A stretch of DNA of 64,000 nt from Gloeobacterales cyanobacterium (lineage in GTDB: Bacteria; Cyanobacteriota; Cyanobacteriia; Gloeobacterales; PMM-0068): positions 1 to 64,000 of the forward strand of contig JBBRSB010000014.1 of the NCBI GenBank assembly GCA_038245785.1. Reading direction: 5' to 3'. The first letter of the stretch is position 1; each line of letters opens with the position of its first letter. Below, in pieces: positions 36,001-36,855 of this stretch. The notes under the pieces are model-generated. The model was given only the letters and a program-made list of their open reading frames with translations. It was not told the DNA's origin and did no database searches. The position numbers and the translations under genes are program-made.

Positions 36001-36855
36001 ATGAGTTTACTAATGAAGAGTAGGAAAATATCGAAAAATCTTGTTAGGGTTTTGATTTCGGGTGCAGTCTTTTTATCCGTCCTACTCCTTTCTTTTATAC
36101 CTTTCCATGCCGTTCAGGCTGGCCTTGTTCCAGGAACCTTTACTACTAGCTGCGGTGGCTCTAGAGTAGGCGTATATTTTGGCCGACCCTATTTGGCTTC
36201 TACTTGTAACACCGCAGGTTATCTATACGGAACCAGACAAGTCGCAGCCTCTGTCTATCTTCGTGGAATTTCCAATTACGGAGGTCGCCTATCTCAACTC
36301 CCAATGACAGGCATAGGAAGTTCTTTTCAGAGTACATGTAGAAATTTTTCTGTCGCTGGCAATCAACTCAGCGCTGAGTGTAAAACTGGAAGATTTATAA
36401 CAGGAATCCTATATAACACACCCACATATAGTAGAAGTGTTATCGCTCTTGCAGAAATATCAAATCATGATGGCAGATTAGAATATGAAGACGATAATAT
36501 CAGAGATAGAATAGCGGACAAAATTGCAAATGGACATGCCTATCAAAAACATGTCATTCAACAGGGAGAAATTACGTACTTTCCTGGAAGAAATGCTAGT
36601 AAAGAAGAATTCAAGCAGTTAATCTTGACAGTCCTCCGACAGGGTGAGTATAAAATTCTGAGTAGAAAATATGGAGATGTTGCGGTTTACTGGCTGGCCA
36701 ACGTAACACCAACAAAGCAGGGGATGGTTGTCTTTGTCCCGCCTGCTGAGCGGTTAGATGCAGATGAGGGCACCGCATTTGTCCCAAGGGACGGCAGGGC
36801 GTATTATGACAATCTAAAAGGTAATAATGGCCCCATCGCACGTGATGAGTTGTGA
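36001..36855 (+). CDS. secreted cyanovirin-N-like (CVNH) lectin fused to putative polymorphic toxin domain
   Basis: Signal peptide ending AVQA; two CVNH repeats (FTTSC..LASTC..ISNYGGRL; FQSTCRN..LSAECKT..ISNHDGRLEYE); C-term IANGHAYQKHVIQQGE..VYW..GMVV..GTAFVPRDGRAYYDNL; ORF track start 35971. Confidence 0.82.
   Translation: MSLLMKSRKISKNLVRVLISGAVFLSVLLLSFIPFHAVQAGLVPGTFTTSCGGSRVGVYFGRPYLASTCNTAGYLYGTRQVAASVYLRGISNYGGRLSQLPMTGIGSSFQSTCRNFSVAGNQLSAECKTGRFITGILYNTPTYSRSVIALAEISNHDGRLEYEDDNIRDRIADKIANGHAYQKHVIQQGEITYFPGRNASKEEFKQLILTVLRQGEYKILSRKYGDVAVYWLANVTPTKQGMVVFVPPAERLDADEGTAFVPRDGRAYYDNLKGNNGPIARDEL

Follow-up and report, generated by a model that had tools for sequence, protein, structure and literature searches.

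We analyzed a 64,000-nucleotide stretch of DNA from a Gloeobacterales cyanobacterium (the window, hereafter) and found that the open reading frame (ORF) located at 36001-36855 (+), which is intact and encodes 284 aa, joins a CVNH-type (cyanovirin) lectin to the C-terminal tip of a polymorphic toxin, with the gene of a putative antidote located downstream. According to the reading that we favor, the product would be a small, single-chain, exported lectin-RNase toxin accompanied by a cytoplasmic antidote, most likely acting against eukaryotic microbes (probability of about 0.45). In its broader form, that is, a lectin-guided toxin with cognate immunity whatever its target, the proposal is probably right. 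An earlier note, made from the sequence of this DNA, had pointed out the domain fusion; the immunity gene and an RDEL tail at the end of the protein were both outside that note and, therefore, the likely mechanism has changed.

A single intact gene joins the lectin and the toxin tip

The encoded protein starts with a predicted Sec-type signal peptide (36001-36120 (+), residues 1-40), which was assigned by reading the sequence and by hydropathy. It shows a basic N-region, a hydrophobic core (Kyte-Doolittle mean of 2.3 for residues 16-35) and a signal-peptidase-like site between AVQA and the following G, without a lipobox Cys or a twin arginine. This segment is followed by a divergent two-repeat CVNH lectin (36121-36489 (+), residues 41-163) with four Cys and three Tyr/Gly-rich insertions, by a toxin tip of an unnamed family whose predicted fold is similar to that of colicin D and CdiA-CT O32:H37 (BECR-type; 36490-36819 (+), residues 164-273), and by an added tail of 11 residues (36820-36855 (+)) that ends in RDEL (36841-36852). 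The tip begins approximately 8 residues after the lectin, leaving no space for an entry domain of the colicin or CdiA type.

The fusion of the lectin with the toxin tip was confirmed to be real. The locus is spanned by one contig of run X1 with a flat depth of 60 (X1 is possibly the source), and the lectin-tip junction is crossed by a contig from another study (run X2 record 12, 35819-36773); a chimeric assembly was ruled out by these two contigs. The order of the AraC gene, the fusion, the spacer, the small ORF and the WD40 gene was identical in the runs of two other studies. The intact frame and the junction in an independent contig bear out the domain fusion that the earlier note had read in 36001-36855.

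The N-terminal half resembles cyanovirin-N

The mature protein has exactly four Cys (C51, C69, C113 and C127), all of them within the lectin half. When this half was compared with the PDB, 10 of the 11 matches were CV-N, with E values of 9e-7 for the tandem dimer and 1.2e-3 for 1iiy, and a profile of four fused proteins matched the cyanovirin-N of the PDB with an E value of 1.7e-9. The NCBIfam profile NF052356 was matched along its whole length (E 5.7e-11) with 43 bits, below its curated cut-off of 80 bits, and the Pfam family CVNH (PF08881) was matched end to end (E 0.0012) with 20 bits, below its cut-off of 24.5 bits; the fused relatives P0005 and P0115 score above the latter. The coverage of the two profiles was 1-102/102 and 1-103/103. 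These PDB matches and the whole-profile coverage support the assignment of the N-terminal half as a CVNH-type lectin, and agree with the two repeats and the four Cys that had been described previously. In the full-length prediction, residues 1-163 had a pLDDT <50 (4-sequence alignment); since this part of the model is unusable, the assignment of the CVNH fold rests on sequence.

The sharp end of the lectin that had been proposed at 36489 is shared by other proteins, given that 27 of the 28 other cyanobacterial CVNH rows (approximately 23 distinct genes) end 0-6 residues past this point; none of these 28 rows was matched by a tip profile. The loop insertions rich in Tyr and Gly, which the note had considered unusual, were also found in the comparison with 11 stand-alone cyanobacterial CVNH proteins, and have approximately 4, 4 and 9 residues. 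In the alignment, N155 and D157 correspond to N93 and D95 of CV-N, and the positions of E41 and D44 of CV-N are occupied by Ser and Gly. We take these four CV-N residues to be sugar-site residues, and the alignment suggests that one of the CV-N sugar sites has been partly changed in the lectin half. Separately, we observed that in P0124 and P0126 a secreted CVNH domain follows an M23 peptidase or a DUF4157 domain, and these proteins are other possible glycan-guided enzymes.

The C-terminal half belongs to a family of polymorphic-toxin tips

A library-wide search with the tip yielded 106 matches, 105 besides P0003 (P0026 and P0089 are spurious; they were excluded from the tree and are still counted within the 105). 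These proteins are 97 to 3538 aa long, and a closing GT(A)F-type motif lies in the last 45 residues of 99 of the 105. In 18 of the 105, the domains Rhs, PT-HINT, PT-TG, PT-VENN, TPS, DUF637, WXG100/T7SS, VgrG or MuF were present above the Pfam cut-off; for most of the remaining ones no Pfam family was found. The location of the relatives at the ends of proteins and the presence of delivery families in some of them support the idea that the C-terminal half is a polymorphic-toxin tip, in line with the CdiA/Rhs-type origin suggested earlier. No Pfam or NCBIfam model corresponds to this tip family; Colicin_D was matched in 0/55 members, and weakly in 1/105. Some other architectures were noticed: in P0096 the tip is joined to Tachylectin and PT-TG; in P0098, a signal-like start is followed by an N-terminal tip and then by hemopexin repeats; and P0043, P0083 and P0088 consist only of a signal-like N-terminus and the tip.

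When a 55-sequence profile of the tip was compared with the PDB, a single significant chain was obtained, 8EY4_A (CdiA-CT of E. coli O32:H37, E 1.1e-4). A model of the tip with a pLDDT of 86 was then compared with 48,161 chains, and 8EY4 again ranked first (Z 6.7, rmsd 2.7, 81 aligned), above the CdiA-CT from Kp342 (5.2), colicin D (5.1) and an archaeal protein that seems unrelated (5.1); further CDI tips and toxins of the RelE type appeared lower down. In the ESM Atlas, the tip showed 0.91 to unnamed clusters, and 0.87 to Colicin_D clusters, which we consider only as a lead. Because the profile and the fold search agree on 8EY4, the tip was assigned a BECR/colicin D-like RNase fold, a helix followed by an antiparallel sheet, at modest scores; the RNase assignment of the earlier note is thus supported to the same degree. 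The toxin of 8EY4 is a colicin D-like non-specific RNase that is paired with an iron-cysteine immunity protein (PMC12585627), and colicin D is described as tRNA-specific in an excerpt of PMC4307339.

Apart from an Arg, the columns conserved in the family are kept in the tip (H179, K183, H184, E190, W231, D255, G257, T258, F260, P262 and Y268). The first three are almost invariant (H179 in 54/54, K183 in 51/54 and H184 in 53/54) and would form the catalytic HxxxKH center. The motifs of the pattern from HAYQKHV to DNL that had been recognized in the sequence are present; however, that pattern passed over the insertions between motifs.

A cognate immunity gene follows the toxin gene

The ORF located at 37076-37279 (+) encodes a 67-aa protein (P0001) of the consensus type LxxxNNALNEVCNG...EFxTRxG. 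Among 25 other tip loci, chosen by tip patterns alone, phmmer with P0001 revealed a homologue immediately after the tip in 21 (approximately 14 distinct); L017 (contig end) and L018 (false match) were excluded. Cognate immunity genes are typically recognized by this arrangement, and we conclude from these comparisons that ORF 37076-37279 encodes the cognate immunity protein. P0001 had no match in Pfam, NCBIfam or PDB, and in the ESM Atlas it showed 0.94 to unnamed clusters. On the basis of sequence, the tip and this protein define a widespread RNase-tip/immunity pair that so far is without a name or a Pfam model. In the genome, no further copies of the tip, the immunity gene or the lectin were found, nor were orphan cassettes.

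The spacer between the toxin and immunity genes is 220 bp long, versus 2-29 bp in 21 other loci with both genes. A repeat search identified in this spacer an inverted repeat with 28-nt arms (36952-37048). A remnant of a second toxin was considered for the spacer and rejected, given that there is no long frame and no match. A stretch of 53 bp of the spacer (36884-36936) recurs on another contig of the same genome (C15:10700-10752) with 81% identity (E 3.6e-7). In addition, a contig of run X6 joins 36504 to 37143, so that 638 bases are skipped, from the beginning of the tip into the immunity gene; the shorter side of this joint has 21 letters, and it is weak evidence for what is possibly a lectin-only or deleted allele.

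The protein ends in a motif of the ER-retrieval type

The protein encoded by ORF 36001-36855 ends in RDEL, and six relatives end in SDEL; both endings fit the endoplasmic reticulum (ER)-retrieval pattern [KRHQSA][DENQ]EL, quoted in an excerpt of PMC2140024. After the closing motif of the tip there are 24-25 residues in the tailed group, versus 12-14 in most relatives (89 of 99) and never more than 21. An ER-pattern end was present in none of 105 other tips and in none of the 28 other CVNH rows, and among the 3407 ORFs of the genome with at least 150 aa the RDEL protein is the only one with such an end (4/4938 when ORFs of at least 100 aa were included). The chance that a given protein ends in this way is 3.0e-4, and its occurrence on this particular protein counts in favor of the motif. 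When compared with the relatives, four of the last five residues are identical, versus 2/6 in the linker and 68% in the tip. In run X2 the DNA of the tail is no longer alignable, and both D and E are encoded by other, synonymous codons; all three changed codons of the linker alter the residue, and the sole change in the motif (R/S) stays within the pattern. These signs of selection on the xDEL end are small in number but consistent.

The fusion is restricted to a few related sequences

Seven sequences carry the tail (P0002-P0004 and P0110-P0113), with 75-80% identity for the two that were aligned, and the frame is intact in all of them. A distant fused group, at 40% identity, includes P0005, P0114, P0115, P0117 and the fragment P0116. 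In a tree of 108 tips, which is based on only 102 columns and whose bootstrap had not settled, one long branch carries the six fused tips of the data set as a group (99/73), in which the five tailed ones form a subgroup (100/96). All the close carriers bear this tip family; the search for other long CVNH proteins was of low sensitivity and missed even P0005. The fusion gene was not found in two genomes of the same genus (94% and 97% complete). A match was obtained in 21 of 400 other cyanobacterial genomes, where it always involved the lectin part only, and no fusion was detected; scans of metagenomes (16 loci), genomes (11 loci) and viruses (none) for fused loci retrieved unfused tips only. 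A search of 40 relatives produced a single weak match (E 1.4e-4). As a separate observation, in L061, from genome G008 of the same order, the region 1-3195 contains an Rhs-core gene, a detached frame (1723-2142) that by eye is distantly tip-like, and a 259-aa protein (931-1710) with an immunity-like start, beside an insertion sequence transposase; the cassette family thus occurs in an Rhs context within this order.

Proposed mechanism and alternative explanations

We propose that, in a single event, the gene of a secreted cyanobacterial CVNH protein received at its end a tip and immunity cassette from a widespread family of the Rhs/CdiA type. The architecture of this graft is observed, and a single origin is supported by the tree of the tips. 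The product would be exported by Sec, and the two disulfides of the lectin would form outside the cytoplasm. The gene of the 67-aa protein is linked to that of the toxin, and this protein would bind and block RNase molecules that fold within the producing cell. On a neighboring cell, the CVNH domain may dock on mannose-rich surface glycans, as suggested by what is known of its family. After uptake, RDEL or SDEL could engage the KDEL/HDEL receptor and the protein would travel to the ER and from there to the cytosol, where the tip, through its HxxxKH center, would cleave tRNA, rRNA or RNA broadly and halt translation. Because there is no bacterial entry domain and the tail is ER-like, the target tilts to eukaryotic microbes, a choice for which the chances are slightly short of even; the ER route itself is more tentative.

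Several observations weigh against this proposal. By chance, 1.0 ER-pattern ends are expected somewhere among the 3407 ORFs, and because the motif was noticed after the fact, the odds derived from the tail have to be discounted. The tailed relatives form one clade and are not independent cases, and the distant fused group (P0005, P0114, P0115 and P0117) has a normal tip end without the tail. Toxins that escape from the ER tend to be poor in Lys; the tip, with 8 Lys among its 121 residues, is not below the median of its relatives (5.3%). No furin-type site was seen between the lectin and the tip when the sequence was read. Regarding the enzyme, the Z of 6.7 in the fold search is below the caution level of 8 of the tool, Foldseek gave no match for the tip model in the PDB at E 0.001 (colicin D (1tfk) and the CdiA-CT from Kp342 were among weak rows only), and an Arg of the family (49/54) is not retained in place in the fused group. 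According to an excerpt of PMC2140024, ASDEL, the exact ending of the relatives, is weaker than AKDEL in human cells. The activity of the 8EY4 toxin requires EF-Tu, a bacterial factor (PMC12585627), and a CVNH lectin need not aim at eukaryotes, because microvirin binds the lipopolysaccharide (LPS) of its own producer (PMC4390846, excerpt).

The last two points, together with the absence of the tail in the P0005 group, would fit an antibacterial bacteriocin guided by its lectin, in which CVNH binds mannose-containing LPS or the sheath of cyanobacteria or other bacteria, the tip cuts tRNA or rRNA, and the tail is incidental. All the identifiable carriers of the tip family are interbacterial delivery systems, and the immunity protein is nearly unchanged (64/67 residues identical to P0118); both points speak for this explanation. 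However, modular bacteriocins have a translocation or inner-membrane entry domain (PMC6240691, excerpt), which is missing here, and the conserved xDEL end would be left unexplained. Moreover, the alleles of the tip diverge (71/104 residues identical to P0004), whereas the lectin (115/123) and the immunity protein stay alike; therefore kin should be cross-immune, which also counts against it. We consider this explanation unlikely.

A second alternative is that the protein is a domesticated scavenging RNase. In the barnase-barstar plan, an RNase is exported and a small protein guards the cytoplasm; here, the enzyme would be tethered by its lectin to the glycans of its own colony and would digest outside RNA for phosphate or clearance. 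The plain Sec signal, the existence of a few relatives made of a signal-like N-terminus and the tip, the distance of 220 bp to the immunity gene, as if it were expressed separately, and the long branch that leads to the fused group, which suggests a changed role, are compatible with this idea, as is the non-specific activity of the nearest solved relative (PMC12585627). On the other hand, the presence of the gene is patchy (it is not in the two genomes of the same genus, and no fusion was seen in the 400 cyanobacterial genomes), conflict would explain the faster divergence of the tip better than nutrition would, and the tail would also remain unexplained; we consider a scavenging role quite unlikely. 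Finally, it is very improbable that the tip has little or no catalytic activity, so that the protein would work as a lectin carrying a passenger domain. Even though the family Arg is not in place, the tip has three insertions and P0114 and P0116 of the distant group do not have the invariant first His, all the other conserved columns are kept in ORF 36001-36855, each of the seven tailed sequences has an intact frame, and the immunity gene has been retained and shows conservation.

If the exported lectin-RNase toxin that we favor is real, it suggests a weapon against fungi, algae or grazers. It would also mean that, in an early-branching cyanobacterium, an interbacterial RNase tip of the Rhs/CdiA type became a miniature anti-eukaryote A/B toxin by gaining a high-mannose lectin on one side and evolving an ER-retrieval signal on the other, an origin independent of those of ricin, K28, exotoxin A and cholera toxin, although we regard this history as somewhat doubtful. 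If the tail works, a bacterial toxin tip would have been caught being re-aimed across domains of life, and the tailed and tail-less relatives would constitute a natural before-and-after pair. The natural role of the high-mannose lectins of cyanobacteria is largely unknown (PMC4390846, excerpt), and an anti-eukaryote A/B toxin, if true, would be the first natural job for a lectin of the cyanovirin type. Given that here a CVNH lectin is tied to a toxin tip and an antidote, a role in antagonism is directly testable.

Genomic neighborhood

A gene for an AraC-family regulator (34858-35781 (+); Pfam HTH_18, E 3.7e-23, and HTH_AraC) lies immediately upstream of the fusion on the same strand, and the same gene is found upstream of it in related strains of two other studies. 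Between the AraC and toxin genes, 13 nt are directly repeated without mismatch at a period of 21 bp (35808-35841 (+)), forming a candidate tandem AraC binding site; half-sites of AraC are spaced by a 21-bp period. Among the 11 AraC-like genes of the genome, the repeat behind this one was the best (12/12, versus 6-10/12 for the others). Because of this gene and the repeat, the toxin gene is probably regulated by the AraC-family protein, and its expression is probably inducible. A scan for sigma-70 promoters and terminators gave no signal (5 found versus 4.7 expected).

Downstream, the remnant of a WD40-repeat gene (37318-38024 (-) of the window, with frames of 155, 54 and 55 aa) abuts the end of a pgi-like gene. 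This copy looks truncated or split because the contigs of related strains continue with other sequence at 38003. The window also contains a low-GC island at 50768-53370 (0.36-0.40 at 51001-53000) with several unnamed ORFs. In the genome, which is 98% complete, the genes of the photosystem II reaction center are present and no match to CAAD/CurT or KaiB was found, a combination that we take to fit an early-branching, Gloeobacterales-like cyanobacterium.

Comparison with known systems

The fusion is similar to cyanovirin-N and the other CVNH lectins (PF08881, NF052356, microvirin) in its tandem repeats, four Cys, signal peptide and C-terminal boundary; it differs in scoring under both cut-offs, in the three Tyr/Gly-rich insertions and in the toxin tip. 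Other long CVNH proteins have LamG, M23 peptidase, DUF4157 or TPR domains and no toxin tip (nine non-self matches in a low-sensitivity search). No paper on a CVNH-toxin fusion was found in the full-text literature, although most subscription journals and the supplements of polymorphic-toxin surveys, which may list one, are outside this coverage.

With CdiA-CT O32:H37 (8EY4), colicin D and the CdiA-CT from Kp342, the tip has in common a His/Lys-His center near its start and a T-x-F-x-P...Y end; however, it is only 12-15% identical to them, belongs to an unnamed family, has another immunity protein and is not accompanied by the delivery domains of CdiA or colicins. Polymorphic toxin systems (Rhs, CDI, WXG100/T7SS, VgrG and MuF) share with this locus the C-terminal tip family and the downstream immunity gene. 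In contrast to them, the tip is carried here by a lectin of 120 aa preceded by a Sec signal, the protein has an ER-like tail, there are no orphan cassettes in the genome, and a single tip family was seen on the CVNH carrier, as far as an insensitive search reveals. The lectin-like bacteriocins LlpA and LlpB also involve a secreted lectin in antagonism, but they have the MMBL fold and, as described in excerpts of PMC6240691 and PMC6465234, lack both a separate toxin domain and an immunity gene.

Likeness of design only, without membership in any of these groups, was observed with the yeast killer toxins K28 and zymocin, cholera toxin, the LT toxin of E. coli and the exotoxin A of Pseudomonas; the searches against the PDB revealed no sequence relation of the fusion with K28, zymocin or A/B toxins. 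The design that the fusion would share with the killer and A/B toxins is the docking on glycans together with an enzyme, and an ER-retrieval end. Among them, zymocin combines a chitinase with a tRNase (PMC5618205), K28 binds mannoprotein and needs HDEL (PMC4974620), and LT carries RDEL and cholera toxin KDEL (PMC2200010). Compared with these toxins, the fusion is a single 27-kDa chain with no second subunit, is accompanied by an immunity gene of the bacterial type, and would act as an RNase rather than as an ADP-ribosyltransferase.
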